The notes: a model not told the origin generated them from the sequence alone. A stretch of DNA of 64,000 nucleotides from an uncultured Planctomycetia bacterium (GCA_964455085.1 CAYVYJ010000008.1:1514-65513); one strand, 5' to 3'. Counted from the stretch's first letter, positions 1 to 52,956 are shown. A program made the numbers and translations.

Positions 1-333
1 CCGGCAACAACTAAGTAAATCCGATAGAACTGCATCTCTTCCCGTTTTTACAGGAACTTGCAACTCCACCATACTTAGTTGTTAGCAAGGCTAGACCTTG
101 CCTTATGGTAGAACTAAAACCCAATTATTTAATACCCAATAAATAATACAATACTTTACGAAATCGGTCAATTCAAATTAATGTAGACTCAAAAGTGGGA
201 TAGAGTTTGTGACCATCCAGTGACCAAAATTGAGCCAAGTAGCCAAAACAGGCAAGATTAATGCGAATGGACAAGATTGGAAAAGTGCTTGGTTTTAGGA
301 GTTAATCAAGAAAAGCATTGATGCTGTTGAAGA

Positions 334-365
334 AACAAAAAAGGACTGAATTGCATTTTCAGTCC
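334..365 (-). terminator. Intrinsic-terminator-like hairpin with U-run
   Basis: Minus strand reads GGACUGAA-AAUGCAA-UUCAGUCC (8-bp perfect stem, 7-nt loop) immediately followed by UUUUUUGUUUCUU. It lies downstream of the minus-strand gene ending at 611. Confidence 0.5.
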
Positions 366-393
366 CTCGCTCTACCACCTGAGCTACCTCGGC
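355..393 (-). tRNA. Truncated tRNA-Phe(GAA)-like 5' half; no intact 3' half found in window
   Basis: Minus strand GCCGAGG-UA-GCUC-AGGUGGUA-GAGC-G-AGGGA-CUGAAAA-U matches canonical tRNA-Phe positions 1 to 39 (acceptor 5' arm, D-arm, anticodon 5' stem, loop with GAA anticodon). The expected 3' stem UCCCU, T-arm GGUUCGAAUCC and 3' acceptor strand are absent. The sequence runs directly into the terminator-like hairpin. Confidence 0.4.
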
Positions 394-610
394 AATATTC
401 AAAACTCTTTATTTTCAAAGAAAGGTTTAAGACTATTGAAACGGAAGTTAATTATACCAGATTTATCTAAGGCTGCAATAAAGATTTTCTTATGTCGCTA
501 AAGGGTTTTTTGGCCTTATTATAAAAGATATAAAAGCTGCCAAAGCCTGTTTTGCTATGTCATCTATCAATACTTTCCCTTCTCTGCCGCTCCTGGTATC
601 TGGTATCACA

Positions 611-2221
611 CTAATAAATCTTATACAGTTTGTAGATCACTCCACCTAAATTATTGTAGAAGAACTTCTCAGCCTTTATTTTTTTCCCGATTCTTGACAC
701 TGCGACCCCAAGTATGTATTCATCTACTAAATCAAGACTCCCTCTTAAAAAATAGACGCTATCTTGTTTCTCTGAAAATTCGCTTATATAGTGCTTAATC
801 TTATACTCCGCAGGCTGACCCAGTGAAGAAAGTTTTACCCATTCAGGGTCTTGATTGCACCACCGTACAGTAATATTTTCCTTTGATAAAAACTGAACCA
901 GTTTACCTACCGCCCAATCATTAGAATATATTTTTTTTATCCCTTTACTTGATAAATATTCCATAACTTCATCAGTAACCTGAGACCACATATAGGTGTG
1001 GGTCCCAACCTTCTTCATATTCTGATAATAAGCCAAGCTAAAAATGATACCGCCTGTAATAACTATACAGAGAATAAACTTAACAATCGCACGAGCCAGT
1101 TGATAATCTGCTGCTTTCTTCAACAGAAAAGAGAAAAAACAGGCCATAACAATCTGAGGGAAAGGATAGATCATAAATAAATGTGTCGGATCGAGGTTGC
1201 TCGGTGTTAACGGTAACCCTAAAAATGTTATTCCCCAGATAAAACAATAAAGCTTCAATCCCTGTTTAACCTTAATAGAAATCACTCCGGGAACCACCAA
1301 AACATAGATAGCAAAAAAACAAGCTGCTACAAAGAGTACCGGCACCATGTGATTTGCTAGATTTAAAACGACTGGAATATCAAATGTTCCTAATTTATCA
1401 GTTAGACCAATATCACCCTTTAAGAAGTCATACAATTGCAAGACTCTAACCTTAAGATTTAGCAAGTAGTTGGCATTATCGACTCCTACGTAAGTACTAC
1501 TACCGGTGAGAAGGCGATAAAACAGCTTAACCGTCGCCCCTTTGGTTCTTATATTGTAGACAATTGTCATGCTATATCCTAATAAAAATGAAGCTACCAA
1601 AGCGACACTTTTAGACCAGCGAATCGGTAAAAGCGTTCGATAACCTTTAGAGACCAGAAAATACCCAATCATTCCAGTTAAATACCAAAAGAAATTAATT
1701 TTCGCGTGGCTTCCCACCCCAAAAAGAAATAAAGCCAGACAGGCATAGATGAGATTTTTGGTACTGATAAATCTGTTAAGCAAGTAGAGCCCTCCCCACA
1801 AACATAATAACAGCAAAATATATTCACTAAAAAAATTCAGCTTGCTTCCTTGCAGAAAAGGCGCTGATGTGCATAATAAAACAATTAACCATCCAGCGAT
1901 TTGTTTCCCCATCTGATCTCTCACTGTCAGATACAAAATAAAAAGCAACAACAAAGCATTGACCAACGCTGCCAGCCTTAATGCAAAAAGATTTAAACCA
2001 AACAAAGCAATGTATGGAGCTATAAAATAATGTTTTAACGCACCGGTATAGGCATGATACACTAGGGGGAGTTTGCGACCAGAAACGATATCACCAGCAA
2101 CAATACCGTCAGCAGCTTCTTCTGGATGTATAGGAGTAGCTACTAATGTAGTGGTGGAGAAAAAAATGTAAAGCGTTAGACAAAATATAACTAGATATTT
2201 TAAACTCAAGAATTTCTTCAT
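611..2221 (-). CDS. GT-C fold membrane glycosyltransferase (ArnT/PMT_2-like, polyprenyl-phosphate-sugar dependent) with C-terminal soluble domain
   Basis: 536 aa with about 11 predicted TM helices. N-terminal loop has PEEAADG...G motif resembling the DE/ExxA motif of GT39/GT83 enzymes. About 150 aa hydrophilic C-terminal domain. Start is 1 nt after the stop of the upstream radical SAM gene. Confidence 0.6.
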   Translation of the reverse strand: MKKFLSLKYLVIFCLTLYIFFSTTTLVATPIHPEEAADGIVAGDIVSGRKLPLVYHAYTGALKHYFIAPYIALFGLNLFALRLAALVNALLLLFILYLTVRDQMGKQIAGWLIVLLCTSAPFLQGSKLNFFSEYILLLLCLWGGLYLLNRFISTKNLIYACLALFLFGVGSHAKINFFWYLTGMIGYFLVSKGYRTLLPIRWSKSVALVASFLLGYSMTIVYNIRTKGATVKLFYRLLTGSSTYVGVDNANYLLNLKVRVLQLYDFLKGDIGLTDKLGTFDIPVVLNLANHMVPVLFVAACFFAIYVLVVPGVISIKVKQGLKLYCFIWGITFLGLPLTPSNLDPTHLFMIYPFPQIVMACFFSFLLKKAADYQLARAIVKFILCIVITGGIIFSLAYYQNMKKVGTHTYMWSQVTDEVMEYLSSKGIKKIYSNDWAVGKLVQFLSKENITVRWCNQDPEWVKLSSLGQPAEYKIKHYISEFSEKQDSVYFLRGSLDLVDEYILGVAVSRIGKKIKAEKFFYNNLGGVIYKLYKIY

Positions 2222-2222
2222 T

Positions 2223-3356
2223 TTAATTATTAATATTCCTTGTTATCTGTTGCAGCAATAATTTCCAGTTCCTAATACCGTATATCATGCTGGTAATAGC
2301 ACCACAACTCCATACACAAGGTAAACACTTCATTTCTCCTGCAAATTCCTGCACTTTTTTGAATTCAGGTTCTTTCTGCAACAACTTATAGTCATAATTA
2401 TAGTTTCGGATATTAAATTTTTTTACTTCGTTATATTTTTTCTCAAAGATGAACGGCTCACACATCGAAACTAACCCCTCAGGCATGATAACAGATAACT
2501 TTTTACCCGCCATACATCTGTAAATCATCTTTCCTGAGGAAAGCTGTTCTCCTATTATCTTATTGATCAAGAAAACATAATACTGATCAATTACTCCTTT
2601 TAAGCCTCGCCCGCGGCATAAGGATTTCTTGCGCACACTAAGGCAGAGTTTAAAAAACGATTTAATATATTTATCATCTTTCCTATGCTCACCACTATTT
2701 AATCTTTGATCAATCTGAAAATTATGGTAGTAATTCGCTTCACCCAGCGTTTCAATCAAATACTTACTTAACACAATAATTGTATCATAGTTATCTGCCA
2801 ACAATACTGTATTAATCACCAAATTAATATTTTTACACTGCTTCTTTAGGGTAATAATCCGACGACAAAGGTTAACTGCCTTCTCAAAACATCCTTGATA
2901 CCCTCTCATTCGATCATGAACCGCACCATAAGCATCCAGAGAAACTATCAGATTAACTGTCGCCAGAGGACATTCCTTGACAATCCATCCTATTTGATTT
3001 TCGATCCGTTCATCCATAATCCCGTTGGTAGGGATTGAAATTAATCGTGCTTTCGCATAGGTATAAAATGCTTTGGTTATTTTACCAATGTCCTCTCTTA
3101 GAAACGGCTCCCCTCCGCCAAGGACAACCTGAAAAACAGGTTTTATCTTTTTTGCTATGATTTCATATTCCGGAAATTTTAATAACTCCCTATGCTTATA
3201 TTCGTTTTTATTACGGGATAACCTAGTATTAAAGCAGAAAGGACACTCGGCGTTGCATTGATCGGTAACAAATAAAATGACCTGGGCTAAATTCCCAGGC
3301 CAAAAGGCAGTAAAAAAACTTCTAGCAAAGGCTATCGTCCTCAATAATCTTTTCAT
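2223..3356 (-). CDS. Radical SAM enzyme with C-terminal SPASM/twitch-like cysteine cluster
   Basis: 377 aa. CNAECPFC (CxxxCxxC) radical SAM motif near the N-terminus and GGGEPF glycine-rich SAM motif. C-terminal cysteines C...C...CLPCVWSC are consistent with an auxiliary Fe-S (SPASM-type) domain. ATGA start/stop overlap with the upstream GT2 gene. Confidence 0.7.
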   Translation of the reverse strand: MKRLLRTIAFARSFFTAFWPGNLAQVILFVTDQCNAECPFCFNTRLSRNKNEYKHRELLKFPEYEIIAKKIKPVFQVVLGGGEPFLREDIGKITKAFYTYAKARLISIPTNGIMDERIENQIGWIVKECPLATVNLIVSLDAYGAVHDRMRGYQGCFEKAVNLCRRIITLKKQCKNINLVINTVLLADNYDTIIVLSKYLIETLGEANYYHNFQIDQRLNSGEHRKDDKYIKSFFKLCLSVRKKSLCRGRGLKGVIDQYYVFLINKIIGEQLSSGKMIYRCMAGKKLSVIMPEGLVSMCEPFIFEKKYNEVKKFNIRNYNYDYKLLQKEPEFKKVQEFAGEMKCLPCVWSCGAITSMIYGIRNWKLLLQQITRNINN

Positions 3357-4405
3357 TCCCGCCCTAACCGAAAGTATGCTTCCCTAGACGACACCCCTTG
3401 TAATAAATTACCCCCTGCCAAATAATGGATAATACCCCAGAAATATCCCAGCAGGATAACCGGTGTTACGGAAAAATATACCAAATACCAGCCTAGAAAA
3501 TACTTTTTAGGCATAAAGGACCAGATCAATTTATTCATGGCGCCAAATGATATTATAAATAAACTTAAACCGATAGAAAACCCCCAGACCCATACTCGCC
3601 AGTCAAGGAACAAAATAACTAAAGGACTTATTAATAGTAAAAATGCCGATATCCTCCGCCACTTCTCTGCAGGCGAAATCGATAAATCAGGAGTTGTGTC
3701 CATTTTTTTATCGACAATGGCTTGCACAAACGCGGTTAAAAAGTAACTTTTAAACAGTTTAAAGATGTTTGTCGGATAACAATGGCTATGATGTAATTCT
3801 CTGCTAAAATAAGAAATATACCCTAGATGATAACAACGGGTACCAAATTCTCCGTCTTCATTCATTGCTGTGTAGAGAGATTCATGAAAACCACCTGATT
3901 CTCTGAATCTATGTACTCTAATCCCCCCCAGGCGCGTGGTAAAAAACATGATCCGGCCTTCCCTGCTAGGGCTACCTGCGAGTATCTTCCTCATATAGTA
4001 GCTATGGTAAATCGAAGTATTATAAGCAATAGGGTTCTTTATTACTGGCTTAACATCGCTTATCGTGGATACACAATCTACCTGCTTCTTTGTCCGAAAT
4101 ATTTCGGCCATTTTCAGCAAAACATCAGAGTCATCCGGTAAAACTACGTCCGAATCTATAAAAACCAATATATCGCCCTTGGCCTGCAAAGCTCCGATAT
4201 TGCGAGCCCGAGCAGGACCGGCATGCACTTTACTTTCTATTACCTTCACCTGCTGATATTGCCGGGCAATATCCAGGGTATTGTCAACAGATGTATCGTC
4301 AACAACAATAATCTCATAATCTTTGAGCCTGGTTTTTAAAATGCTGTTGAGTAAATTGCCAATTACTAAAGAACTATTGTAGGTGGGTATTATAATCGAT
4401 ATCAT
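3353..4405 (-). CDS. GT2 polyprenyl-phosphate glycosyltransferase (GtrB/ArnC/Dpm1-like) with C-terminal TM anchors
   Basis: 350 aa. IIIPTYN...VDDTSVDNT...DSD GT-A signature and DxD. Two to three C-terminal TM helices as in GtrB/ArnC. First gene of a three-gene coupled unit. Confidence 0.75.
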   Translation of the reverse strand: MISIIIPTYNSSLVIGNLLNSILKTRLKDYEIIVVDDTSVDNTLDIARQYQQVKVIESKVHAGPARARNIGALQAKGDILVFIDSDVVLPDDSDVLLKMAEIFRTKKQVDCVSTISDVKPVIKNPIAYNTSIYHSYYMRKILAGSPSREGRIMFFTTRLGGIRVHRFRESGGFHESLYTAMNEDGEFGTRCYHLGYISYFSRELHHSHCYPTNIFKLFKSYFLTAFVQAIVDKKMDTTPDLSISPAEKWRRISAFLLLISPLVILFLDWRVWVWGFSIGLSLFIISFGAMNKLIWSFMPKKYFLGWYLVYFSVTPVILLGYFWGIIHYLAGGNLLQGVSSREAYFRLGRE

Positions 4406-4551
4406 TAGTTTTCGTCTCTGGTTAGCTTAAGCACTTCTGGGGGATTTTACGATGAGACAAAGCAAACGTGTAATATTCTGTACCGTCTCTTCATTTTTTG
4501 ATTATACTGCTCTAAAATTATTCTGTCAACATTAGGCCAGCCGAAAGCTGC

Positions 4552-4579
4552 TTGACTTGTTTGTATCAAGCTCTATAAT
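4552..4579 (+). promoter_or_regulatory. Sigma70-like promoter (TTGACT, 16 nt spacer, TATAAT) for the + strand B12-radical SAM gene
   Basis: Exact consensus-like -35 TTGACT at 4552-4557 and -10 TATAAT at 4574-4579 in the 299-bp divergent intergenic region. It is about 125 nt upstream of the ATG at 4705. Confidence 0.45.
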
Positions 4580-4704
4580 TTTACTAGGGTTAAATAGCTA
4601 TGTCCTTCCTTACCGTATCAACAACTGATTGAACATAAATTATGGGAAAAATTGCTTGCTTAGGGTAGTGCAGCATAAAGAAGTAATCCTATCAGAACGT
4701 CTAA

Positions 4705-6162
4705 ATGCGTATTTTACTAATCAATCCATCTCCTGATCTACAATCACTATTAGGAGCCGGTAAGTATTTTGTACAGAAATATGAACCTCTTGGTCTGCTC
4801 TATATTGCCGCGATATTGCAAGCAAATAACCATGATGTGTCAGTTATCGACGCCTATGCCGAAGATCTTTCACTGGAACAACTAAAGCTAAAGATTAGCC
4901 GTAGAGACCATGATATTATCGGTATTTCAACACTTACCTGTACTGGTGAAATTGTTTTCCTGTTGGGAAAATGGATCAAAAAAAATCTCCCCAAGACTAC
5001 GGTCGTTTTGGGAAATATTCATGCTTCAGTATATTCGAAACAGTATTTACAATTTAAATGTTGTGACCTAGTGGTGCATGGAGAAGGAGAAGAAATATTT
5101 CTTAAAATAGTGGCCTGGAAACAAGGGAAGATTAAGCTCGAAAACATACCTAGTATATCTTTTGCAGATAAAAACAATCAAGAGATTAGAACCGGAGGGG
5201 AAGCAAATGTCCAAGATTTAAATCAACTGTCACCTCCGGCAAGGGATTTACTCGACCAAAATCTCTACAATCTAACTGAAATTAGCAACCAGCTATATAT
5301 TGGAAGAAAAGGAATGGTAGCCAAGACCATGGTCACATCCAGAGGCTGCCCTAACCGCTGTACGTTTTGTGTAGTTCACGGAGAACGCTCCCAACGGTTC
5401 ATCGATCCTGCCAAAGTTGTCGACGAAATGGAAATGTTGCAGAAAAAGTACAACGCATCCTACATTACCTTCATGGATCCTTGTTTCTTCGGTAACACTG
5501 CAAGAGTACTAGCTATCTGTTCTGAAATCATAAAAAGAGGTCTAAAGATACACTGGGGGGCAGACGCCCATATTAATTTTATGACTAAAGAGATAATAGA
5601 ATCTATCGCCGCGGCCGGATGCTACGAACTTCAATTCGGGATAGAATCAGGGGTTCAAAGACTTCTTAATGTAATTAAAAAAGGAACAAATATACAACAA
5701 ATTAGTAAAACAATAGATTTGATAAAAAAACACTCCAAAATAAAGCTGGGGGGATTGTTTATACTGGGCTTACCCGAAGAAACCTATCAAGATTCGCTGC
5801 AAACCATTCGATTTGCTAAAAGATTACCTCTGGATATTGCGCAATTTAGTATCCTAGTTCCTTATCCGGGGTCTTTTTTGTTTGAACAATTGAGAAAGGA
5901 AAAAGCTATTGACACCGGAATTGGTGAAGGCGGTAAGTTAGATACCTCTGTCTGGAGGCGCTATTTATCCTACATATCGTTTACTGAAAACGAGCCCATT
6001 TGGGTAACACCTAGGCTATCGGCAGATCAACTTAAATATCTTCAGAAACGGGCTCAACGCGAATTTTACCTGCGGCCGAAACAAATCTTCCGCCACATAA
6101 GAAGAATCCGCCCTTCAAATATCGTCAGAATAATCAAAATCATCTCCAAGGGATTCTTCTAA
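4705..6162 (+). CDS. Class B (B12-binding domain) radical SAM enzyme, probable C-methyltransferase/tailoring enzyme
   Basis: 485 aa. N-terminal Rossmann-like B12-binding region (MRILLINP...). SRGCPNRCTFC CxxxCxxC motif. Paralogous to the ORF at 52957..54366. Confidence 0.75.
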   Translation: MRILLINPSPDLQSLLGAGKYFVQKYEPLGLLYIAAILQANNHDVSVIDAYAEDLSLEQLKLKISRRDHDIIGISTLTCTGEIVFLLGKWIKKNLPKTTVVLGNIHASVYSKQYLQFKCCDLVVHGEGEEIFLKIVAWKQGKIKLENIPSISFADKNNQEIRTGGEANVQDLNQLSPPARDLLDQNLYNLTEISNQLYIGRKGMVAKTMVTSRGCPNRCTFCVVHGERSQRFIDPAKVVDEMEMLQKKYNASYITFMDPCFFGNTARVLAICSEIIKRGLKIHWGADAHINFMTKEIIESIAAAGCYELQFGIESGVQRLLNVIKKGTNIQQISKTIDLIKKHSKIKLGGLFILGLPEETYQDSLQTIRFAKRLPLDIAQFSILVPYPGSFLFEQLRKEKAIDTGIGEGGKLDTSVWRRYLSYISFTENEPIWVTPRLSADQLKYLQKRAQREFYLRPKQIFRHIRRIRPSNIVRIIKIISKGFF

Positions 6163-6308: not shown

Positions 6309-8117
6309 CTAAAATCTTTGGACTGCGTCGGGATTGAGAATTCCGGTTCGTTCAATGTTCTTTTTTGAAAAATACTTCTGGGCTACAGACCTGAATTCAT
6401 TCATAAACCAAAGTGAATGCGGCATCTCAAGCCCCATATTGGTTCTTCGCAATATTTTTCTCGGTAGCGTATCTTTCATCGCCAACTTTTGAATATATCT
6501 CCTGTTAAAACCACAGTTTCTGACCTTCAGATGCGGCGGAATCTTGCTGGCAAACTCCGCGACTATCCTATCCATATAAGGAAACCGCGCCTCTATGGAG
6601 TGGGCCATAATAGAGCGATCGTTCTTCACCATAAGATCCCCCACAAAGTAATACTTTATATCGATTAATGATATTTTACTCAAATCATCGTCAAATAATA
6701 AACTATCAAAAAGATCGTTAAAAAACGAATTTGTTGACCGGAAGTTCGAATATTGCGGCAATAAATCCTTCTTCTCTTGGTCTGAGAAAACATGTCGCCA
6801 GAACAAATGAGCTTCAGGGATACTTTTTTCTGCGCCGGCTGTAAAACGTTTCAGTAAAAAATCAAAGCTTAATTTCTCATATGATGTTGGCACCATCTGC
6901 ACAAATTTTCTGATAATCTTTCTGATGAAAGCAGGAGAATACTTCCTGTATAACTTTCTCATCAAATATGCACCATGAGTTTCGTAGGCGTTAAATACCT
7001 CATCACCCCCCTCACCGGAGAGAAGGACAGAGACGTACTTCTTGGCTTCTTTAGCCATAAGAAATGAGGGAATAACCGCCCCGTTCCCACTGGGCTCATC
7101 CATATATGCCATCTGGACAATGAGATTATCAATAACGTCTTGGGGATCTACGACAATTTCATGGTGAATCGACCGGGCAAAACCAGCCATAAATCTTTGA
7201 TAGTAAGATTCATCAAAACTAGATTGATTCATCTTGATGGAAAAAGTATGAATCGTATTGCTTACTCCTAATTCTTTTGCTAGGGCTAATAAGGAACTGG
7301 TATCAACCCCACCGGATAAAGTAAGCCCTACAGGAACATCGGAAATAAGATTTCTGCGCACTGAATCTAACAATATATCATGCAATTGATGAGCAGTTTC
7401 ATTAACTGGTAATGAATAATCGGGTTGATAGTCCAGCCTATAGTACTCTCTTTCCTGAAACGAATTACCTAGGCAATCTATCTCTACAAGATGACTATCT
7501 GGTAACTCCTGTATTGATTTAAAAGGGGGCAGCTTCCCAGGAATATAGGCTAAAGAGAAAAAATGATATATCGCCGCAGGATCAATTTTATAACTGAATG
7601 AAGCAAGCTTAAGAAAAGACTTGATCTCCGAAGAGAAGTATAATCGATCCCTCTTAACCATGTAAAACAGCGGCCGGATACCAAAGAAATCCCGGACTAA
7701 ATATATCTTACCAATTTTTTTATCGTATAACGCAAAAGCAAACATCCCGGAAAGATGCTTGAGAAAATTAATCCCCAGCTCTTCATAAAGGTGTATAACA
7801 ACTTCGGTATCAGAAGTAGAGCGAAACCGGTATTTGTCATCTAATTTGAAATTCTTTTTTAGTTCTTTGAAATCAGTTACCTCTCCGTTGTAGGTTATCC
7901 AAACCGTTTTATCCTCATTAGACATCGGTAAATGAGCATTTTCGGATAAATCAATAATATTTAGGCGGGTATTGCCGAAAACGCAATGGGGGCTAACGAA
8001 GGTATCAATTGAGTCAGGCCCTCTATGTTTAAGGATAGCTGTCATCTGCTCAGCTTCCTTAATATCATTATCGTTGATTTTTGAACCCAAAGATACAATG
8101 CCGGCAATGCCACACAT
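6309..8117 (-). CDS. asnB: Asparagine synthase (glutamine-hydrolysing) family amidotransferase
   Basis: 602 aa. N-terminal MCGIAG Ntn-amidotransferase nucleophile Cys2. SGGVDTS/SGGxDS PP-loop ATP pyrophosphatase motif. Confidence 0.85.
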   Translation of the reverse strand: MCGIAGIVSLGSKINDNDIKEAEQMTAILKHRGPDSIDTFVSPHCVFGNTRLNIIDLSENAHLPMSNEDKTVWITYNGEVTDFKELKKNFKLDDKYRFRSTSDTEVVIHLYEELGINFLKHLSGMFAFALYDKKIGKIYLVRDFFGIRPLFYMVKRDRLYFSSEIKSFLKLASFSYKIDPAAIYHFFSLAYIPGKLPPFKSIQELPDSHLVEIDCLGNSFQEREYYRLDYQPDYSLPVNETAHQLHDILLDSVRRNLISDVPVGLTLSGGVDTSSLLALAKELGVSNTIHTFSIKMNQSSFDESYYQRFMAGFARSIHHEIVVDPQDVIDNLIVQMAYMDEPSGNGAVIPSFLMAKEAKKYVSVLLSGEGGDEVFNAYETHGAYLMRKLYRKYSPAFIRKIIRKFVQMVPTSYEKLSFDFLLKRFTAGAEKSIPEAHLFWRHVFSDQEKKDLLPQYSNFRSTNSFFNDLFDSLLFDDDLSKISLIDIKYYFVGDLMVKNDRSIMAHSIEARFPYMDRIVAEFASKIPPHLKVRNCGFNRRYIQKLAMKDTLPRKILRRTNMGLEMPHSLWFMNEFRSVAQKYFSKKNIERTGILNPDAVQRF

Positions 8118-8170: not shown

Positions 8171-9292
8171 TTACTGGTATTCCTTAACCATATCCCTCAC
8201 TGTCTTGGCAATAGCCAGAGAACTAGTTAAGCCTGGTGACTCAATACCAATAAGGTTTATTAAGCCGGGAAAACCATTATCGGCTTCATCCTTGATTAAA
8301 AAATCTCTAAAATCCTCACCCGGCCCCTGAAGTTTAGGTCTTATTCCCGATGTATCCGGTCCTAAATCTTCCAAGTTAATAAAGGGTAGCATCGGTTTAA
8401 CATCTTGGCAAAAGGCTCTATTTTTAGATTGATCAATGTCATAATTAATCTCATCTATATATTCATCGTCAGGCCCCAGACGCAGGCCTCCGGCTAAGTC
8501 TAAAGTAGCATGTATCCCTAATCCTGAACCCTCTTGCTTGGGGAGCGGATATATTAATCTATTAATTAATTTTGCTTTGTTATTATGAACCCTGAAGTAA
8601 TCACCTTTGGAGTATTTTATTTTGTATTCATCTTGCTTAATACCCGCCATTGCGGCTACTTTGTCAGAATTTAAGCCCGCGGCATTAATTAAGATTCGAG
8701 TCGATAAGCTAAATGATCCCTCTTGTTTATCCTCTACTGAAAGCTCAAAGCCATCACTAATTTTATCTACGCCGACTAATTCCGTATTATAAACTATTTC
8801 ACCGCCTCGTTCTTTAAACTCTAAAAGTAGCTTCTTGAGTAAAGTATGGGAATCTATAATGCCGGTAGAAGGTGAGAATATGGCTGAGTTTGCTCTTATC
8901 CGGGGCTCAATTTTCCTTATCTCGACTGGCGAAAGTATTTCTAAATCCCTTAGGCCGTTAGCTAAACCATTTTGAAAAAGTTTCTCTAACTCACCTTGCC
9001 TCTGGTTGTCAGTTATGACAATAAGCTTACCGATTTTTTTATATCCGATATTATTTTTCTGGCAATAGGTATAAAGCAACTCCTTACCCTCAAGACAAGT
9101 CTCGGCTTTAAGAGAATTCTCCGGGTAATAAATTCCAGCGTGGATTACCTCACTATTTCGTGAACTTGTCTCCTGGCCAAAGGAAGGATTTTTCTCAACT
9201 ACTAAAATATCCTTACAGTCTCCTGAAAGCTCTCTGGCTACCGCTAAGCCGATTATCCCTGCACCGACGATAGTAACTGCAACTCTCTCCAT
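8171..9292 (-). CDS. FAD-dependent oxidoreductase (DAO family, L-2-hydroxyglutarate oxidase-like)
   Basis: 373 aa. N-terminal VTIVGAGIIGLAVAREL Rossmann dinucleotide-binding motif and EVIHAGIYYP motif typical of LhgO/glycerol-3-P dehydrogenase-like DAO enzymes. Confidence 0.7.
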   Translation of the reverse strand: MERVAVTIVGAGIIGLAVARELSGDCKDILVVEKNPSFGQETSSRNSEVIHAGIYYPENSLKAETCLEGKELLYTYCQKNNIGYKKIGKLIVITDNQRQGELEKLFQNGLANGLRDLEILSPVEIRKIEPRIRANSAIFSPSTGIIDSHTLLKKLLLEFKERGGEIVYNTELVGVDKISDGFELSVEDKQEGSFSLSTRILINAAGLNSDKVAAMAGIKQDEYKIKYSKGDYFRVHNNKAKLINRLIYPLPKQEGSGLGIHATLDLAGGLRLGPDDEYIDEINYDIDQSKNRAFCQDVKPMLPFINLEDLGPDTSGIRPKLQGPGEDFRDFLIKDEADNGFPGLINLIGIESPGLTSSLAIAKTVRDMVKEYQ

Positions 9293-9309
9293 GATGTCAA
9301 TAATTTCAC

Positions 9310-9747
9310 TTATTGTTTAAGATCTGACTCTTCTTCCACCTTGAGTCTAGGAGATACCCTTCCCTCCAGGTGGTCAAAAATCACCGCTGCTGCAAATTCA
9401 GCAAGTAAGTAATTAAGTGACGCTACTTCTACCTGAGTTCTCCGCTCATCTAATCGATTAAAAAATATTGCCACCTCAGTCGATTCGGCGCATTGTGCAA
9501 AAACGCTAGTAAAATCATAAACCACAATAAAGCCCTCTTCCTGGCTGCCGCGGTAGAAGTTAGTCCCTATTTCTTTTAGCTGGCTGTTAACTTTTTTATA
9601 GCAGGCAGGAAGGTCTTTATCAAAAACTTTGCTGTAAACTTTACCCTTTTCTCTAAACGGTTTAATTCCGGCACCGAAGAGACGGCTTAATTCCAGCGGC
9701 GAGCAACCCAAAGCGAAAATAAGAAAAAGAAAAAATATTTTCCTCAT
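9310..9747 (-). CDS. Lipoprotein, unknown function
   Basis: 145 aa with signal peptide and lipobox LGC|S. No recognisable catalytic motifs. Confidence 0.55.
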   Translation of the reverse strand: MRKIFFLFLIFALGCSPLELSRLFGAGIKPFREKGKVYSKVFDKDLPACYKKVNSQLKEIGTNFYRGSQEEGFIVVYDFTSVFAQCAESTEVAIFFNRLDERRTQVEVASLNYLLAEFAAAVIFDHLEGRVSPRLKVEEESDLKQ

Positions 9748-9753
9748 TCTGGC

Positions 9754-10020
9754 CTAATCTTTTACTCTTTCTCTTCTGTAAACTAATACAAAGATGAGTA
9801 CTAAGGTAAAAAGAACAAAATTTATAATATTAAATGTCCGCCAAACTAAATCTTCAGACACAAATCCATCCGGGGCCATCAAGACAAAACATAGCCACAC
9901 ACCTATTGCCCAATAGATACTAATATCCCGGGATGATTTCCGTTTTATTATTCTCAAGATCAGCGGTATATTCCAAAAGGGAAGGATAATCGCTGCGATA
10001 AGTGCCACTTTTTCTGCCAT
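9754..10020 (-). CDS. Small two-TM membrane protein (possibly LAB_N lipid-A-biosynthesis N-terminal-like)
   Basis: 88 aa with two hydrophobic helices separated by a basic loop. Weak resemblance to small LpxB-N-terminal-like membrane proteins. Confidence 0.4.
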   Translation of the reverse strand: MAEKVALIAAIILPFWNIPLILRIIKRKSSRDISIYWAIGVWLCFVLMAPDGFVSEDLVWRTFNIINFVLFTLVLIFVLVYRRERVKD

Positions 10021-10093
10021 TTACTAGTTTTGTTTTAGATAAATTTACCTCACCGAAGACGGCAGACCTATTAACCGCCTCCGCTTAAACCGA

Positions 10094-10249
10094 TTACTTT
10101 TTAAGTAAAGTTAATATTTCTTCAAGCTGTTTGGATATCTTCGATAAAATATCCATCTGTTCGCGCTGGGAACGCTCCTGCTTTTCCTGGAGCTGTTTTG
10201 CCTGATTAGCCATTTTCGACAAATCTCCTAATTTGCCTAAATCAAACAT
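10094..10249 (-). CDS. Unannotated small ORF (51 aa) with strong RBS; coiled, Q/K/E-rich
   Basis: Minus-strand ATG at 10249 is preceded by AGGAGG 5 nt upstream. It reads MFDLGKLGDLSKMANQAKQLQEKQERSQREQMDILSKISKQLEEILTLLKK and stops at 10094. Below the 60-aa cutoff of the ORF track. Confidence 0.4.
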   Translation of the reverse strand: MFDLGKLGDLSKMANQAKQLQEKQERSQREQMDILSKISKQLEEILTLLKK

Positions 10250-10320
10250 AGATCCTCCTTTTGAACTGATTCGGTTTAGGTTAAACCTAACCTTATTGAC
10301 TGATCAAAAGCTGACAGACT

Positions 10321-11469
10321 TCATTTGGCTTTAGTGAAAGATTTAAGTGACTTGAGGTAATTACGATAATTAGAGCTTATTTCTCCTAGGCTATCAAATC
10401 CAAATTTATCCAAAAAACTCTCAGTTATGGCAATTGCTGACATACTTTCAGCAATAAGGCCGCAAGCAACTATCGCACAAACATCTGAACGCACAACTGG
10501 TGCTTTTTGAGCTTTCTTGGTAATAATATTTACTGAATCAAGTGGTTTAGCCAAAGTAGCAATCGGTTTCATAGCCAGCCTTAAGATAATTGGTAATCCT
10601 GTAGAAATACCCCCCTCGATGCCGCCGGAATTATTGGTCTTTCTGGTAAAACCTTTATTGACTGTGTAATATATCGCATCGTGAGTGAGTGACCCACTTT
10701 TTTTGGCGTAGTCAAAACCTAAACCTATCTCAACCCCTTTAACCGCAGGAATACCCATTAAATAAGAACTAAGTTTAGCATCCAGGCGGCGATCAAAGTG
10801 CATGAAACTCCCAACTCCTGCAGGCACACCTTCTATCCAAAGCTCAACTACTCCACCTAAGCTGTCCCCGGCCTCTTTTGCTTCAGCAATCTCTTCAATC
10901 ATTAGCTTCTCTTTATTCTTATCGAGACAATTTAATTTTGACCCCTTAATTTTATTAATAATCTCATTTATGCTCCTAGGTTGCTTTTGAGAAGAAATGC
11001 CTCCCAGGCTGAGAGTGAAACTGGCAATCTTTATTCCGAAGTTTAAAAGAAATTGTTTACATATAGCACCAGCAGAGACTCTGGCTACTGTTTCCCGGGC
11101 CGAAGCTCTTTCGAGAATATTCCTCATATCTGTTTCTTGATACTTTAAGGCACCGGCTAAATCAGCATGCGAAGGTCTCGGCACAGAAAGAGAAGATAAG
11201 CTATCTTTAGCTTGAGTAAATATCTTGGTATCTTTATTTTTGACCAGTATAGCTATCGGGCTACCTAAAGTTATTTTGTTGCGCAGGCCGGATACAATCT
11301 TAACTCTATCCTGCTCTATTGACATCCGCTTTCCTCTCCCTTCACCAGAGGCCCGCTTCTTTAACTCTTCATTGACGAATTTCTGATCAACCTTTACTCC
11401 TTTAGGAAATCCTTCCAGAATCGCCACAATATACTCCCCATGGGATTCGCCAGCAGTTAAAATTCGCAC
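10321..11469 (-). CDS. aroC: Chorismate synthase
   Basis: 382 aa. N-terminal RILTAGESHG and GxSxxGR motifs typical of AroC. Confidence 0.9.
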   Translation of the reverse strand: MRILTAGESHGEYIVAILEGFPKGVKVDQKFVNEELKKRASGEGRGKRMSIEQDRVKIVSGLRNKITLGSPIAILVKNKDTKIFTQAKDSLSSLSVPRPSHADLAGALKYQETDMRNILERASARETVARVSAGAICKQFLLNFGIKIASFTLSLGGISSQKQPRSINEIINKIKGSKLNCLDKNKEKLMIEEIAEAKEAGDSLGGVVELWIEGVPAGVGSFMHFDRRLDAKLSSYLMGIPAVKGVEIGLGFDYAKKSGSLTHDAIYYTVNKGFTRKTNNSGGIEGGISTGLPIILRLAMKPIATLAKPLDSVNIITKKAQKAPVVRSDVCAIVACGLIAESMSAIAITESFLDKFGFDSLGEISSNYRNYLKSLKSFTKAK

Positions 11470-44862: not shown

Positions 44863-45948
44863 TTAATACTCTAGTAAACCTTTAGCTGAATTAAATACCT
44901 CATCTACAGTAATATCTTTAAGACACTTTAAATCTCTCAAACATTTCGTGAGTCTAAACCTCTGGTAACAAGGCCGGCAGGACAAATCTTTTTTTATCAC
45001 AACATGTTTCTGAAGATTTTCAGGGTACGGTCCGTAAACTGCCTCGCTCACCGGGCCAAAAATTGAAACTGTTCTTATTCCTGAAAATACACCCATATGT
45101 ACTGGGCCACCGTCATTGGCAATTAACAGGGCTGATCTTTGAAGTAGGGCCAAGAAATCAAGCAAAGGCAAATCTATGGCCTTCACCGGCTTATTTTGCA
45201 TCAGGCCTTCTATAGCCTCAATAGTTTCTCTTTCGCTACTGCTTCCGGCCAGAATAATCCGCACCCCACATTGATTAATCAGCTTATCAGCTAACTCCGC
45301 GAACTTAATTCTGGGCCAGTGCTTACGATAAGAGTCGCGTCCCCAGCTCACTCCGCCACAAGGCGTAATCGCGATAAGCGAATCATCAGCCCCAATGCCT
45401 TGTTGGTTTAAGAAATTTGCTGCCTGATTCTTTTGAGTTGCAGTTAAGTTTAACTGAACCTTGCGATACTCGGGCTTAAGGCCTAGCAGTTTCAGAAGTT
45501 CCAGGTAATACTCGATGACGTGTTTGGCTTCATACCCTTTAAGGCTAATCTTCTTAGTTAAAAATCTTCCCCGCTTTTTATAATCATAACCGATTCTTTG
45601 TTTTATCCCCGCAGCCCAGGCGAAAAATCCAAACTGTGAATTTAAAGATAGGTCTATTACAATATCGATGTTTTCTTTTTTTATCTCGGAGATAAAACTC
45701 CCTATTTTCCTGACCCAGGAAAATAGGGACCTTCTCTTAACAGCCTCAAATTCATCTCGCTCATAGACAAAAGTCTTATTGATCAGGATAAAATTTTCTA
45801 ATAGGGCTTGAGTCCTCCGATTGCAGAGGTAAAAAATCTTGCTGGAAGGAAAGTTTTCTTTTAAGTTACTTATAAGCGGTAAAGAGAATAAAACATCTCC
45901 GATACCAAAGGGATTTATTATCAAGAAAGACTTCAGCCTATCTTCCAT
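44863..45948 (-). CDS. GT9 family glycosyltransferase (LPS heptosyltransferase-like)
   Basis: 361 aa. N-terminal LIINPFGIGDVLFSLPLI motif characteristic of ADP-heptose:LPS heptosyltransferases. Confidence 0.75.
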   Translation of the reverse strand: MEDRLKSFLIINPFGIGDVLFSLPLISNLKENFPSSKIFYLCNRRTQALLENFILINKTFVYERDEFEAVKRRSLFSWVRKIGSFISEIKKENIDIVIDLSLNSQFGFFAWAAGIKQRIGYDYKKRGRFLTKKISLKGYEAKHVIEYYLELLKLLGLKPEYRKVQLNLTATQKNQAANFLNQQGIGADDSLIAITPCGGVSWGRDSYRKHWPRIKFAELADKLINQCGVRIILAGSSSERETIEAIEGLMQNKPVKAIDLPLLDFLALLQRSALLIANDGGPVHMGVFSGIRTVSIFGPVSEAVYGPYPENLQKHVVIKKDLSCRPCYQRFRLTKCLRDLKCLKDITVDEVFNSAKGLLEY

Positions 45949-46723
45949 TCTTAATTAAATCTCTATATTTAGCGTAGCTAGTAATCTGATAAAGCGAAGC
46001 AAAGTAAGCTACCATAAAACCAATAAACCCGTCGCGGTAACCTCTCTTAGCAATAAAAGCTCTTAGGAACCTATCGCCGGTGCGCCAGAGGGCATGAACA
46101 AAATTCATCTTATAACCTGCCTTTTTTGGGTCACTCTTGGACAATTTGTACCACTTCTTAGCTTCTAAAGTAGTTTGATTATTAAGCTTGCTCAAGAAAA
46201 TTGCCCAATCCTTGTAAGTATAGTGGATTAAATCACCCCTTAGATGTCCGCATTCACCGATTAAATCAGCCCGAGGGTGAACTTCTACCTCTTCCCACTT
46301 AAATTTATCTCTGCGGAATAACTTTAATTGGGCTGAAGGATATAACCCTCCCCAGCGTACCCAATAATCACCGATAAAGTTTCTTCGGGGTATAGTAAAA
46401 GCATTCACGGCCGGGTGCGAAGCAAGAGTTACTTCAATCTCACTCTTTAACTCCTCAGTCAGCCGTTCATCAGCATCAAGACTTAAAACCCACTGATTAC
46501 TTGCCTGAGAGTAGGCCCAATTCCTATGCCGCCCCTCTATATCCATCTTCCGCACTAAAACCTTTGCACCCAGGCTTTGAGCAAAGCTGCGGGTATTATC
46601 AATCGACTGATCATCAACAACAATTACCTGATCTGCCCACTCCCCTACTGACTTTATGCAATCAACAATTCTCTCTTGTTCATCCTTAGTAAGAATCACT
46701 ATTGATAATGGAATCTTACTCAT
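45938..46723 (-). CDS. GT2 glycosyltransferase
   Basis: 261 aa. SIVILTKDE...DDQSIDNT...DADE GT-A motifs. Confidence 0.75.
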   Translation of the reverse strand: MSKIPLSIVILTKDEQERIVDCIKSVGEWADQVIVVDDQSIDNTRSFAQSLGAKVLVRKMDIEGRHRNWAYSQASNQWVLSLDADERLTEELKSEIEVTLASHPAVNAFTIPRRNFIGDYWVRWGGLYPSAQLKLFRRDKFKWEEVEVHPRADLIGECGHLRGDLIHYTYKDWAIFLSKLNNQTTLEAKKWYKLSKSDPKKAGYKMNFVHALWRTGDRFLRAFIAKRGYRDGFIGFMVAYFASLYQITSYAKYRDLIKNGR

Positions 46724-47439
46724 CCTCTCCTCCCTCTAAAAGAAAACAAATTTAGAAAATTTTTCATAACTACCCAAGAATACAACTTTATATAGACCGG
46801 AATTAGTTTCATCATCTTAAAACTGGATTCACCTTCCTGTCGGGAATTCCAGACTGTAGGTATTTCAGTAATCTTGAATCCTTTAAGGTAGGCTTTAAGT
46901 GGAATTTCCATGGAAATCTCAAAACTTTCAGCCTCCAAATCAATCGCCTCAATGATCTCTCGCTTATACATCTTAAATGAATTAGTAATATCATGAGTTG
47001 GTACTCCTAAAATATAAATGATTCGTCCGGCTAAGCTAGATAAAAAAGTCTTAACTGACGGTCCACCTATTTTTTGGCCACCCCGCATATAGCGAGAACC
47101 ACAGACAATATCATAACCCTGATTGATTTTTTGATACATCTTATTAATTAAGACAGGATCATCACATAAATCAGCCATAACCGAAACAATCAACTCACCC
47201 CTTGCAGCTTTAAAACCAGTTAGCAGTGTATTAGCAAAACCTCTAGGTTCATTATTATCGACTAAGATGATATTTTTATAACGCTTCCTTAATTCTTCTA
47301 CTATCACCCTGGTATTATCGCTGGAATGATCATTAACTACTACAACCTCATAATCTACGGTTAAAGCATCGATAAGGCGAATGATCACCTCTCTGATGCT
47401 CTTCTCCTCATTGTGTGCCGGAATAACTACAGATACCAT
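46720..47439 (-). CDS. GT2 polyprenyl-phosphate sugar synthase (Dpm1-like)
   Basis: 239 aa. VSVVIPAHNE...NDHSSDNT...DLCDDP motifs. Immediately downstream of and abutting a large GT-C-like membrane protein. Confidence 0.75.
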   Translation of the reverse strand: MVSVVIPAHNEEKSIREVIIRLIDALTVDYEVVVVNDHSSDNTRVIVEELRKRYKNIILVDNNEPRGFANTLLTGFKAARGELIVSVMADLCDDPVLINKMYQKINQGYDIVCGSRYMRGGQKIGGPSVKTFLSSLAGRIIYILGVPTHDITNSFKMYKREIIEAIDLEAESFEISMEIPLKAYLKGFKITEIPTVWNSRQEGESSFKMMKLIPVYIKLYSWVVMKNFLNLFSFRGRRG

Positions 47440-49484: not shown

Positions 49485-50688
49485 GTTTAGTTACTAATAA
49501 TTTATTATGCACCACTGCTAGACCGATAATTATCCAAAACAGAGACTGAATTCGCTCATCCCATATATTATCCACTATATTTACTATAACAAAAGCTAAG
49601 AAACCGGTAAATAATCCATACCATAGTAAATCCTTCTTTGATGATAAGAATACTTTAAAGGTCCGCTTAAGGAACCAGAAATAAACCAACAGACCCAATA
49701 GACCAGCTTCTACAGCAATTAATAAATACCAGCAGTGAGGATTGGCTTTAATAACCAAAGGTGATTGAGTATATTTTTTAGCTATTTGAACGCTTGTTGT
49801 ATTTATCCCCTTTCCTAAAATAGGATTTTTTGCGGTCTCAAGCAAATACTCCTTCCATATAGCAACTCTTCCCCCTTGATCATAGAATACAGCATTAACG
49901 CCAGTAATAATTCTTCCTTTAAAAATAGGTGAAAAAAATACACTAGATATCACCAGCAGCAGCAGAATAGGTATAATTCGGACTATTTTTAGTTTACTAA
50001 AAAATAAAGTAATACTAAGGCTGGCGATTAAGGCAGCCCAGGAGATAAGCGAGCAGCTGATGAATAAACATATCAGGAATAACCAAAAAAGAATTAAGCC
50101 ATATACCTTAACTCTTTTCTTCTTGCTGCTGAATAAGAAAGACAATATTATCGGCGAAAGTAAAATAAGAAATGCACCAAAAGGGTTTAAGCCGCTAAAA
50201 TAGCCCCTTACCCAGGTTCCTTTAATCGGATAGGAACGCAAGAAATCAACGCCAGTCACAAACTGCCAGATACCATCGATAAATATTATTCCTAAAGATA
50301 CCGAAAATATTCCCAATACTATCCTTAATTTCTTTCGAGAGTCAATAATATCTACGGTGAAGAAATATAGCATAATATATTGGACCCACTTAGTGAAAAA
50401 GGTTCTTAGGCTCTTAGCCGGAGCAAAACTATTAAAAATCGTAAGGAATAATACAGTCAGCATAACTACAATCGGTAAATTTAGAGTTGTCTTGGGAAAG
50501 TACTCTTTTATTTTCCATTTCTTTACTAAAAAGTTTTCAATAACCCAAAGAAGAAATATCAACCCAAAAGTTACTTCGATAACTGCCTTAGACATTGCCA
50601 CAAAGGCAATTAGCAGGCAAAAAATATAAAACTTAATATTTCGCAAATGGTTAACTGCTGAAATGCTCTGATCAAGCATCACTGTCAT
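49477..50688 (-). CDS. O-antigen ligase/polymerase (WaaL/Wzy_C)-like membrane protein
   Basis: 403 aa, about 10-11 TM helices with a larger periplasmic loop in the C-terminal half. No diagnostic motif can be read with certainty. Confidence 0.45.
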   Translation of the reverse strand: MTVMLDQSISAVNHLRNIKFYIFCLLIAFVAMSKAVIEVTFGLIFLLWVIENFLVKKWKIKEYFPKTTLNLPIVVMLTVLFLTIFNSFAPAKSLRTFFTKWVQYIMLYFFTVDIIDSRKKLRIVLGIFSVSLGIIFIDGIWQFVTGVDFLRSYPIKGTWVRGYFSGLNPFGAFLILLSPIILSFLFSSKKKRVKVYGLILFWLFLICLFISCSLISWAALIASLSITLFFSKLKIVRIIPILLLLVISSVFFSPIFKGRIITGVNAVFYDQGGRVAIWKEYLLETAKNPILGKGINTTSVQIAKKYTQSPLVIKANPHCWYLLIAVEAGLLGLLVYFWFLKRTFKVFLSSKKDLLWYGLFTGFLAFVIVNIVDNIWDERIQSLFWIIIGLAVVHNKLLVTKHD

Positions 50689-51895: not shown

Positions 51896-51902
51896 AATCT
51901 AT

Positions 51903-52952: not shown

Positions 52953-52956
52953 AGGT

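Follow-up and report, generated by a model that had tools for sequence, protein, structure and literature searches.

Gene organization of the locus

The window analyzed here is the whole 64,000-nucleotide stretch from an uncultured Planctomycetia bacterium (GCA_964455085.1 CAYVYJ010000008.1:1514-65513). Close to its beginning, three consecutive genes encode, in the direction of transcription, a membrane glycosyltransferase of the GT2 type (GT2), a radical SAM enzyme (rSAM), and a membrane glycosyltransferase of the GT-C type (Table 1). The open reading frames lie exactly where an earlier note on this DNA had placed them, and the tight packing that it described is found as claimed. Indeed, the GT2/rSAM junction (GAATGAAA) carries an ATGA stop/start overlap at 3353-3356, and the rSAM/GT-C junction reads TAA-A-ATG, with a 1-nt gap at 2222. 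The three flanking genes listed in the same note are likewise found, encoding a B12-binding rSAM (B12-rSAM), an AsnB-type amidotransferase, and an FAD oxidoreductase. The AsnB-type gene forms a separate transcription unit, convergent with the B12-rSAM gene.

Table 1. Features of the locus (positions counted from the first nucleotide of the window).
Feature	Position	Strand	Remarks
Membrane GT2 glycosyltransferase	3353-4405	minus	350 aa; PF00535
Radical SAM enzyme (rSAM)	2223-3356	minus	377 aa; PF04055
GT-C glycosyltransferase, PMT_2 clan	611-2221	minus	536 aa; PF13231
Sigma-70-type promoter consensus TTGACA-17-TATAAT	4501-4529	minus	12/12 match; ~96 nt upstream of GT2 start
Terminator-like hairpin and T-run	340-368	minus	~240 nt downstream of GT-C stop
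B12-binding (class B) rSAM	4705-6162	plus	PF02310 and PF04055; divergent from GT2 unit
AsnB-type glutamine amidotransferase	6309-8117	minus	PF00733, PF13537, TIGR01536 at 399.5 bits
DAO-type FAD oxidoreductase	8171-9292	minus	flanking gene
11/12 promoter consensus, B12-rSAM side	4552-4579		consensus match

The three genes are probably carried by one transcript, as judged from a promoter consensus ahead of GT2, the two tight junctions (ATGA overlap and 1-nt gap), and a hairpin beyond GT-C. The 12/12 promoter site is the single perfect one in the region; it was recognized by consensus alone, and promoter-like sites as a whole are no more numerous there than expected from shuffled sequence. The hairpin is partly made of a truncated tRNA-Phe-like 5' half (~395-357), which was rejected as a tRNA gene because neither ARAGORN nor Rfam finds an intact tRNA there. 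Three independent assemblies stop at the hairpin point near 340-368. Within the genes, terminator-like matches occur at chance level (6 found, 4.7 expected).

The GT2 glycosyltransferase

GT2 matches PF00535 above the gathering score (103.7 bits). Its N-terminal GT-A domain, in which D37, D84xD86, and E183-D184 are conserved, is followed by an interface helix and a bundle of hydrophobic helices at the C-terminus. The fold is that of the synthase/PcManGT type, with HAS, PcManGT, and BcsA as structural matches, and the protein therefore belongs with the membrane-integrated synthase-type GT2 enzymes (BcsA/HAS/PcManGT). Thus, of the GtrB/ArnC-like GT2 proposed earlier, the glycosyltransferase family stands and the GtrB/ArnC fold does not. 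Identity with the polyprenyl-phosphate-monosaccharide synthases GtrB, ArnC, and DPMS was rejected on structure, and since GT2 differs from all three, its acceptor could be other than polyprenyl-phosphate.

A processive beta-glycan synthase (BcsA/HAS/PgaC/NodC) was also considered and rejected: QxxRW is missing from the conserved stretch that follows the ED motif (consensus HxHRYPTxFxRFxRxYF), and the family models score far below cutoff. No transmembrane helix precedes the GT-A domain of GT2, and no more than 3-4 helices follow at the C-terminus. By hydropathy, the GT-A domain is followed by what look like three hydrophobic segments, an arrangement that would place the C-terminus outside; this conflicts with a cytoplasmic rSAM in the fusion proteins described below, unless one segment is interfacial.

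One of the closest known proteins is PcManGT, the membrane GT2 mannosyltransferase of Pyrobaculum calidifontis described as "minimal cellulose-synthase-like" (PDB 6YV7). The two proteins share the fold but only ~18% identity, and PcManGT has ~43 extra N-terminal residues. PcManGT is reportedly dependent on dolichyl-phosphate; we know of no rSAM partner for it.

The radical SAM protein

Motifs, family model, and fold all assign the second protein to the radical SAM superfamily. PF04055 is matched at 40.1 bits (cutoff 29.5), the cluster motif CX3CX2C (C34/C38/C41) is invariant in a 36-sequence alignment, and so are G81-G82-E83 of the SAM-binding motif GGEPF. The AF2 model has a pLDDT of 91. Foldseek matches it to SuiB, SkfB, DesII, anSME, PqqE, BtrN, and SpeY, and its sugar- or cyclitol-acting structural relatives are DesII, BtrN, SpeY, and AbmM; TM-scores to BtrN, SpeY, and anSME do not exceed 0.6, at 11-17% identity. 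By profile, the closest solved structures are CteB, SkfB, anSME, and SuiB.

The C-terminal cysteines follow the pattern C281-x17-C299 ... C344-x2-C347-x3-C351, and E300, adjacent to C299, is conserved. The earlier note had described a SPASM-like cysteine cluster. An auxiliary domain is indeed predicted, but probably of another class: PF13186 (SPASM) gives no match to rSAM at E <= 0.01, and a full SPASM domain was rejected, with five conserved C-terminal cysteines vs. the 7-8 of SPASM and no equivalents of anSME C255, C326/C330, and C348. The full SPASM signature, CX9-15GX4C ... CX2CX5CX3C ... C, goes with two auxiliary [4Fe-4S] clusters. PF13186 is present in more distant relatives. The sequence fits a Twitch-type pattern (a hairpin cysteine pair GX4C, then CX2C), and the profile of the C-terminal part can be aligned with the auxiliary domain of BtrN. 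rSAM may carry one Twitch-like auxiliary-cluster domain.

The CX3CX2C core and the hairpin pair followed by CX2C are shared with BtrN, SpeY, and anSME. C281, C299, C344, and C347 align with anSME C261, C276, C317, and C320, and E300 with anSME D277. BtrN (butirosin) and SpeY (spectinomycin) oxidize sugar-like cyclitols. Unlike these enzymes, rSAM has a fifth conserved cysteine (C351) and a helical insert (217-274), and it has a membrane GT2 as coupled or fused partner. Pairing with a sulfatase, as for anSME, was considered and rejected.

The GT-C glycosyltransferase

The third protein matches PF13231 (PMT_2) at 35.2 bits (cutoff 26.1) and has ~9-10 hydrophobic segments by hydropathy. An acidic EE motif (E34-E35) lies in the first loop after TM1, with E35 kept in at least 90% of the family. 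The relatives were collected by an exhaustive HMMER search, a word-indexed search having returned the query only. All 44 members match PMT_2, 8/44 match PMT (PF02366), and 4/44 match STT3. The GT-C assignment proposed in the earlier note is thus supported, within the PMT_2 clan. The suggested ArnT relationship is not: the window protein matches PF13231 and neither PF02366 nor ArnT, and PDB sequence and profile searches return noise only, although ArnT structures exist. Identity with ArnT (GT83) was therefore rejected. Characterized GT-C families use polyprenyl-phosphate-linked sugar donors on the extracytoplasmic face.

Conservation and fusion of the GT2-rSAM pair

Counts for the close family are based on six metagenomic contexts. 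GT2 and rSAM are adjacent, with a stop/start overlap, in 6/6 distinct close relatives, so that the packing is not due to chance, and the neighborhood check proposed in the earlier note comes out in favor of a conserved GT2-rSAM adjacency. Three other sequencing runs, assembled independently, gave the same gene arrangement. Gene order in the close family is always GT2 then rSAM. At three loci (L034, L043, and L062), the two proteins are fused in a single GT2-TM-rSAM open reading frame.

A scan of genome contigs with the rSAM alignment recovered relatives encoded on at least 519 stretches, with no more than 31% identity among the matches listed; the matches listed include neither the window's own genome nor the close family. 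The nearest named homologues are from Omnitrophota, and the best 80 of the at least 519 relatives are spread over many phyla, mostly uncultivated and anaerobic. Neighborhoods were compared across ~80 distant loci. GT2 is the top neighbor family there (26/81 upstream, 16/82 downstream, and 13/141 second neighbors), and the order is reversed, rSAM then GT2, in 14 loci. Other neighbors are GT4, SDR, NDP-sugar epimerases/dehydratases, methyltransferases, rSAM, B12-rSAM, MatE, and Wzx, the last two gene types being found at a few distant loci. No flippase gene (GtrA, MATE, Wzx, or SMR-type) was found in 1-4700 of the window.

An orthologous arrangement including GT-C is found at L003. GT-C is missing at most loci, the closest relative included. 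Therefore, the three-gene unit initially proposed reduces to a conserved GT2-rSAM pair, of which GT-C is an optional partner and not a fixed third member. GT-C-superfamily proteins neighbor the pair at ~20 loci (PMT_2, YfhO, PTPS_related, STT3-like, PF19528, and multi-TM proteins with TPR), with three paralogs at L003 and two at the fusion locus L034.

The B12-rSAM is likely an accessory tailoring enzyme. Its ortholog (52% identity) adjoins GT2-rSAM at L007/L008, and paralogs adjoin the pair at L005 and at many distant loci. No NCBIfam family reaches cutoff for it (BchE 173 bits); it matches the HpnJ model over the full length, below threshold (154.6 vs. 577.6 bits). Membership of the ladderane B12-rSAM family was considered and rejected. 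The AsnB-type amidotransferase is likewise likely an accessory enzyme, with orthologs (53-67% identity) adjoining the pair at L003 (in the same operon), L005, and L009/L010.

A possible mechanism and its alternatives

In three-component periplasmic glycosylation systems, auxiliary epimerases tailor a lipid-linked sugar between its synthesis and its transfer by a GT-C enzyme; polyprenyl-phosphoribose synthase/MATE/GT136 with an epimerase is one of them (PMC11127046). Like GtrA/B/C, CsbB/GtcA/YfhO, and ArnC/ArnD/ArnEF/ArnT, the present locus brings together a cytoplasmic-face membrane glycosyltransferase, a putative tailoring enzyme, and a GT-C enzyme in one probable operon, and GT-C enzymes are again found beside the pair in other lineages, in some cases with more than one paralog. 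In contrast to these systems, the putative tailoring enzyme here is an rSAM, for which we found no precedent among them, GT2 has the synthase/PcManGT fold, no flippase gene was found, and GT-C is optional. Donor tailoring combined with GT-C enzymes is also known in mycobacteria (DprE1/E2 with Emb/Aft).

Our tentative reading, held with slightly less than even confidence, is that GT2 and rSAM form a membrane-associated sugar-transfer and tailoring module, with GT-C acting downstream at this locus. Judging from its fold, GT2 would use a nucleotide sugar to glycosylate an acceptor embedded in the membrane, at the cytoplasmic face; this acceptor would most likely be polyprenyl-phosphate or a polyprenyl-linked glycan. 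The conserved coupling and the fusions show that rSAM, with its one predicted Twitch-type auxiliary cluster, partners GT2; it would abstract hydrogen from the transferred sugar in order to tailor it. An alcohol-to-carbonyl oxidation of the anSME/BtrN kind is the leading guess because the conserved carboxylate E300 beside a cluster ligand aligns with anSME D277; epimerization and ring rearrangement may be considered as well. Dehydrogenase activity is thus a guess from one aligned residue and the anSME mechanism. Given GT-C family chemistry, the downstream enzyme would transfer the product on the outer face to an envelope glycan, a protein, or a lipid. Finally, the B12-rSAM would add C-methylation or a rearrangement, and the AsnB-type enzyme would turn a carboxylate into an amide.

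A more specific version, possible though doubtful, is that rSAM, obligately complexed or fused with GT2, acts directly on the membrane-anchored sugar and gives a new class of lipid-linked donor installed by GT-C. The sugar could then be a polyprenyl-phosphate-linked monosaccharide or a terminal sugar lodged in the half-tunnel of GT2, and the donor a keto, epimerized, or carbocyclic sugar. Hosts would include Omnitrophota, Elusimicrobia, Planctomycetota, Acidobacteriota, and DPANN archaea.

It is unlikely that rSAM instead modifies a soluble nucleotide-sugar donor before transfer, coupling and fusion serving only to pass a labile NDP-keto or NDP-deoxy sugar on to GT2. DesII, BtrN, SpeY, and AbmM, which among sugar-acting enzymes are structurally closest to rSAM, all use soluble substrates, the reversed gene order in 14 distant loci fits this sequence of events, and NDP-sugar epimerase/dehydratase genes are frequent among the neighbors. 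However, in the three fusions rSAM follows the membrane bundle at its C-terminus and is not attached to the GT-A domain, which points to the membrane side, and the invariable order of the close family also argues against a soluble donor. Remodeling of a glycolipid head group, in which GT2 would glycosylate a membrane lipid, rSAM would rearrange the sugar, and GT-C would be unrelated or secondary, appears distinctly unlikely. The lipids concerned could be diacylglycerol, ceramide, hopanoid, or carotenoid, and the rearrangement, for example, a ring contraction to a cyclitol. In HpnI/K/J, which makes the hopanoid cyclitol ether, and in the calditol synthase Cds, an rSAM remodels a lipid-bound sugar, and ring contraction has been proposed for Cds and HpnJ (PMC13459092). 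As in those pathways, a glycosyltransferase would put a sugar on a lipid for an rSAM to rearrange, and here a B12-rSAM with a full-length but below-cutoff HpnJ match adjoins the pair. In addition, GT2 relatives match PF13506 (GT21, ceramide glucosyltransferase type), a few weakly match HpnI (4/53), HpnB, and CruG, and the best PDB sequence match of the single rSAM protein, weak (26 bits) and limited to the core, is the lipid-acting GDGT-MAS. Against this, HpnI, HpnJ, and related models all stay below cutoff, genes for hopanoids or tetraethers are absent from the vicinity, and the neighborhoods contain mainly GT4, Wzx, Wzm/Wzt, Wzy_C, GT-C, and NDP-sugar enzymes, an envelope-polysaccharide context, and not lipid synthesis. 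An HpnI/HpnJ pair was rejected on the HpnJ score and because no shc or hpn genes were seen in the loci.

GT2 could also be a minimal processive synthase (HAS, PgaC, NodC, or MftF-like) extruding a poly- or oligosaccharide whose chain or primer rSAM modifies. This is very unlikely, given the lack of QxxRW, a helix count too low for a complete channel, and neighbors that include no partners of the PilZ, BcsB, or PgaB-D type. Maturation of a RiPP, cofactor, or protein that is later glycosylated, as for MftC/MftF or anSME, has some points of contact with the data: the closest profile structures of rSAM are peptide-modifying enzymes, PMT-type GT-C enzymes glycosylate proteins, and mycofactocin clusters combine a SPASM-class rSAM with a synthase-like membrane GT2, the MftF model outscoring every other curated model for part of the GT2 family (best 1e-40). 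It is nevertheless extremely improbable. A search of seven close loci found no conserved small open reading frame outside the coding regions, in line with the earlier statement that no precursor peptide lies nearby; the cross-locus matches are only shadow frames inside the two genes, and the intergenic frames of the window, compared for conservation among the close loci, are short and mostly TTG-initiated. No peptidase, PqqD/RRE, export, or other RiPP family was seen among ~300 neighbors, and neither the alignment nor the AF2 model contains an N-terminal RRE domain on rSAM, since the core begins at residue ~25. A RiPP maturase system was rejected on these grounds. Unlike mycofactocin loci, these have no equivalents of MftA, MftB, MftD, or MftE, and MftC/MftF membership was rejected for the window proteins (GT2 55 bits, MftF cutoff 280; rSAM 41 bits, MftC cutoff 265).

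Significance

A literature search found no described GT2-rSAM(-GT-C) system. To our knowledge, nearly all known sugar-tailoring rSAM enzymes come from soluble antibiotic pathways, and envelope glycans are diversified by NAD/FAD-dependent or PLP-dependent enzymes. The product of the GT2-rSAM pair is probably an unusual cell-surface sugar that has yet to be described. As a conserved and sometimes fused unit, it would bring radical chemistry into envelope glycan assembly, and direct action on a membrane-anchored sugar, if true, would make this the first rSAM shown within a lipid-linked glycan donor pathway, as far as we could find. In annotation, this rSAM clade should not be labeled as peptide maturases. 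Finally, with two genes, the pair is tractable in a heterologous host and could reveal new surface sugars in bacteria and archaea that are ultra-small and little understood.

Organization of the Three-Gene Unit

The three-gene unit is real. Open reading frames for a membrane GT2, a radical SAM enzyme (rSAM) and a GT-C enzyme are found on the minus strand where the earlier note had placed them, and its reading of the junctions holds: GT2 and rSAM share an ATGA overlap (GAATGAAA), and rSAM and GT-C are separated by a 1-nt gap (TAA-A-ATG). The flanking genes that it named (B12-rSAM, AsnB-type amidotransferase, and a DAO-type FAD oxidoreductase) are also present, with support from Pfam or family models. 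A perfect TTGACA-17-TATAAT consensus precedes the GT2 start by about 96 nt, back-to-back with an 11/12 promoter site of the divergent B12-rSAM gene, and a hairpin with a T-run is located about 240 nt past the GT-C stop. These signals, which are consensus matches and not proof, are compatible with one three-gene transcript. The arrangement was recovered by independent assembly in three other sequencing runs.

Features of the window and of related loci (L-numbers denote relative loci)
Feature	Position	Strand	Remarks
GT2	3353-4405	-	350 aa; PF00535, 1.3e-29
rSAM	2223-3356	-	377 aa; PF04055, 5.6e-10, exceeds cutoff
GT-C	611-2221	-	536 aa; PF13231 (PMT_2), 1.8e-8, exceeds cutoff
B12-binding rSAM	4705-6162	+	flanking gene
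AsnB-type amidotransferase	6309-8117	-	flanking gene
DAO-type flavoprotein	8171-9292	-	flanking gene
SemiSWEET-like small membrane protein	9754-10020	-	88 aa; PF03083, 22 bits, just under cutoff; NF037968, 21 bits
tRNA-like segment	340-395	-	
Second envelope-glycan locus	44863-55028	-	GT9 heptosyltransferase, two GT2s, unassigned 681-aa protein, Wzy_C protein, GT4
Membrane GT21-like GT2	51903-53009	-	start overlaps B12-rSAM end by 53 nt
B12-rSAM	52957-54366	-	coupled to GT21-like GT2; followed by SAM methyltransferase
GT2-rSAM fusion	L034:8933-11035		Omnitrophota MAG
GT2-rSAM fusion	L043:8966-11047		Omnitrophota MAG
GT2-rSAM fusion	L062:3-1946		Elusimicrobia MAG
GT-C paralogs	L003:52-2070, 2288-3964, 9113-10741		PMT_2 clan
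Ten successive ORFs	L001:2565-6845		39-237 aa, no Pfam match

The SemiSWEET-like ORF is located upstream of the DAO-type gene and of a 145-aa predicted lipoprotein. The segment GCCGAGGTAGCTCAGGTGGTAGAGCGAGGGACTGAAAAT resembles a tRNA-Phe(GAA) in its 5' half: acceptor arm, D-arm and anticodon stem-loop are recognisable. It has no 3' half, folds back as a terminator-like hairpin with a T-run, and is not called as an intact tRNA by ARAGORN or Rfam. Because three independent assemblies of the locus all stop exactly there, about 245 bp past the GT-C stop, this point suggests a repeat or variable junction, for example an old integration scar.

The GT2-rSAM Pair in Close and Distant Relatives

With its close relatives, the rSAM forms a small clade that has no name and consists of metagenomic sequences only (13 clusters reach at least 39% identity, and one of them is labelled Omnitrophica); a far larger second tier of relatives lies at 23-31% identity. 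In all six distinct close contexts examined, a GT2 ortholog is found directly upstream of rSAM, with overlapping stop and start codons. GT-C is present in L003/L004 and absent from L001, L005, L007, and L009/L010. The closest relative, L001, shares 83% and 78% identity with the two proteins of the pair and has nothing else in common with the entire 64-kb window; hence, the two genes behave like one cassette. Beside the pair, AsnB orthologs (53-67% identity) are found in L003, L005, and L009/L010, and B12-rSAM genes in L005 and L007/L008; the DAO-type gene does not recur. The gene context of L001 is wholly unlike that of the window: the ten ORFs listed in the table precede the pair, and three further ORFs, then the housekeeping genes uppS-cdsA-dxr, follow it.

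In species-representative genomes, at least 519 candidate stretches encode rSAM relatives. Among the best 80 of these, taken as loci, Omnitrophota are commonest, followed by Planctomycetota, Elusimicrobia, Acidobacteriota, Myxococcota, Chloroflexota, and DPANN archaea. Of the 69 loci uninterrupted by contig ends, 32 have a GT2 match on the same strand as rSAM within 400 bp, and 47 have one within 1 kb. Three loci carry single-ORF fusions, in the order GT2, hydrophobic bundle, rSAM, with both Cys motifs intact. Gene fusion and conserved translational coupling argue for a functional, and probably physical, partnership of GT2 and rSAM; no other conclusion of this work is as well supported. Of the triad that the earlier note proposed, GT2-rSAM adjacency recurs and GT-C is a facultative third member.

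GT2 heads an unbiased Pfam census that took in about 300 neighbours, first and second (26/81, 16/82, and 13/141). Next come further rSAM genes, 28 in number, 14 of them with a B12 domain and 6 with a SPASM domain, and then GT4/GT1, SDR and NDP-sugar epimerase/dehydratases, methyltransferases, PMT_2, MatE, and Asn_synthase. Radical SAM genes are extremely dense in some distant loci: three to six B12-rSAM and several SPASM/Twitch rSAM genes occur within 20 kb in L021 (Candidatus Brocadiaceae), L034, and L087, with glycosyltransferases interleaved among them in the latter two.

Within the window itself, an rSAM and a GT2 are coupled once more, namely the B12-rSAM and the GT21-like GT2 of the second envelope-glycan locus. 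This B12-rSAM and the one flanking the three-gene unit are paralogs over their full length (27% identity).

Nature of the rSAM Enzyme

A peptide substrate would be the usual expectation for a SPASM enzyme, and the earlier note had seen no precursor ORF nearby. Comparison of seven close loci agrees: every small ORF conserved between loci falls within the GT2 or the rSAM gene, read in another frame or from the complementary strand. Intergenic ORFs of the window are short, and most of them start with TTG. The rSAM lacks an N-terminal extension of the size of an RRE, and no RiPP-associated family occurs among the neighbours of the census.

The predicted model of rSAM, a confident one (pLDDT 91), places the enzyme in the SPASM/Twitch class. 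No solved structure is close to it: TM-scores are at most 0.63, with matches that include SuiB, SkfB, DesII, ChlB, EpeE, anSME, PqqE, BtrN, SpeY, and AbmM. The best profile matches are CteB, SkfB, MoaA, and anSME. C34/C38/C41, the GGEPFL motif, C281, C299, C344, and C347 are invariant in the alignment, and C351 and E300 are kept in at least 90% of sequences. C281/C299 align with C261/C276 of anSME, ligands of the Aux I hairpin, and C344/C347 with C317/C320; counterparts of anSME C255, C326/C330, and C348 are missing. Since only five C-terminal cysteines are available, two auxiliary clusters could not be fully ligated. The SPASM-like Cys cluster of the earlier note is probably Twitch-like, without the full two-cluster SPASM set. 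We take this pattern to be a BtrN-type Twitch arrangement with one extra cysteine. E300 aligns with anSME D277, the proposed general base. Because of this conserved carboxylate, a single residue, alcohol-to-carbonyl oxidation is our leading guess for the chemistry.

The GT-C Partner

Judged by its sequence, the downstream protein is a genuine PMT_2-clan GT-C. An exhaustive HMMER search gives 768 relatives (225 below 1e-10, the nearest at 29% identity), and all 44 aligned relatives match PMT_2, some also PMT or STT3. E35 is nearly invariant, within a DE-type motif just after TM1 (HPEEAADG in the window). For none of them is a related solved structure detectable by sequence. No evidence links the protein to ArnT. 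The earlier picture, in which a SPASM enzyme is inserted into a classical GtrB/ArnC-ArnT pair, has to be corrected on the points given here.

GT-C-superfamily proteins, or multi-TM proteins that carry TPR domains, are encoded near rSAM in about 20 contexts: the window, L003 (three paralogs), L011 (PF19528), L020 (STT3/PglB-like, its end only 1 bp away from the ORF of rSAM), L034 (two), L035 (YfhO), L043, L046, L053, L059, L061, L067, L085, L086, L092, and L009/L010/L072. As a raw count, GT-C beside rSAM is recurrent yet clearly facultative. In L003, the three paralogs surround AsnB-GT2-rSAM, two of them having no recorded Pfam match and being recognised via iterated search only; this layout is reminiscent of several GT-C enzymes drawing on one lipid-linked donor.

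A Possible Pathway

What is conserved is a membrane GT2 together with an rSAM, probably of Twitch type, and the two lie within envelope-glycan loci. The data establish that the two are coupled and at times fused, and they establish the fold classes, the conserved motifs and the content of the neighbourhoods. Family-model comparison found no curated family describing this pair, nor did the literature searched contain a published description. In the scheme that we infer, for acceptor, order of steps, chemistry and GT-C link alike, GT2 would load a sugar onto a membrane-anchored acceptor, rSAM would tailor the loaded sugar at the cytoplasmic face, and GT-C enzymes, where these occur, would take up the product on the outer side of the membrane; extra decoration may come from B12-rSAM and AsnB enzymes. 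This three-step route appears the most economical mechanism. Its logic has published analogues in three-component pentofuranose systems, with their auxiliary epimerases (PMC11127046), and in the remodelling of lipid-bound sugars by the rSAM enzymes HpnJ and Cds (PMC13459092). Finally, the natural single-polypeptide fusions would offer ready-made constructs for biochemistry.
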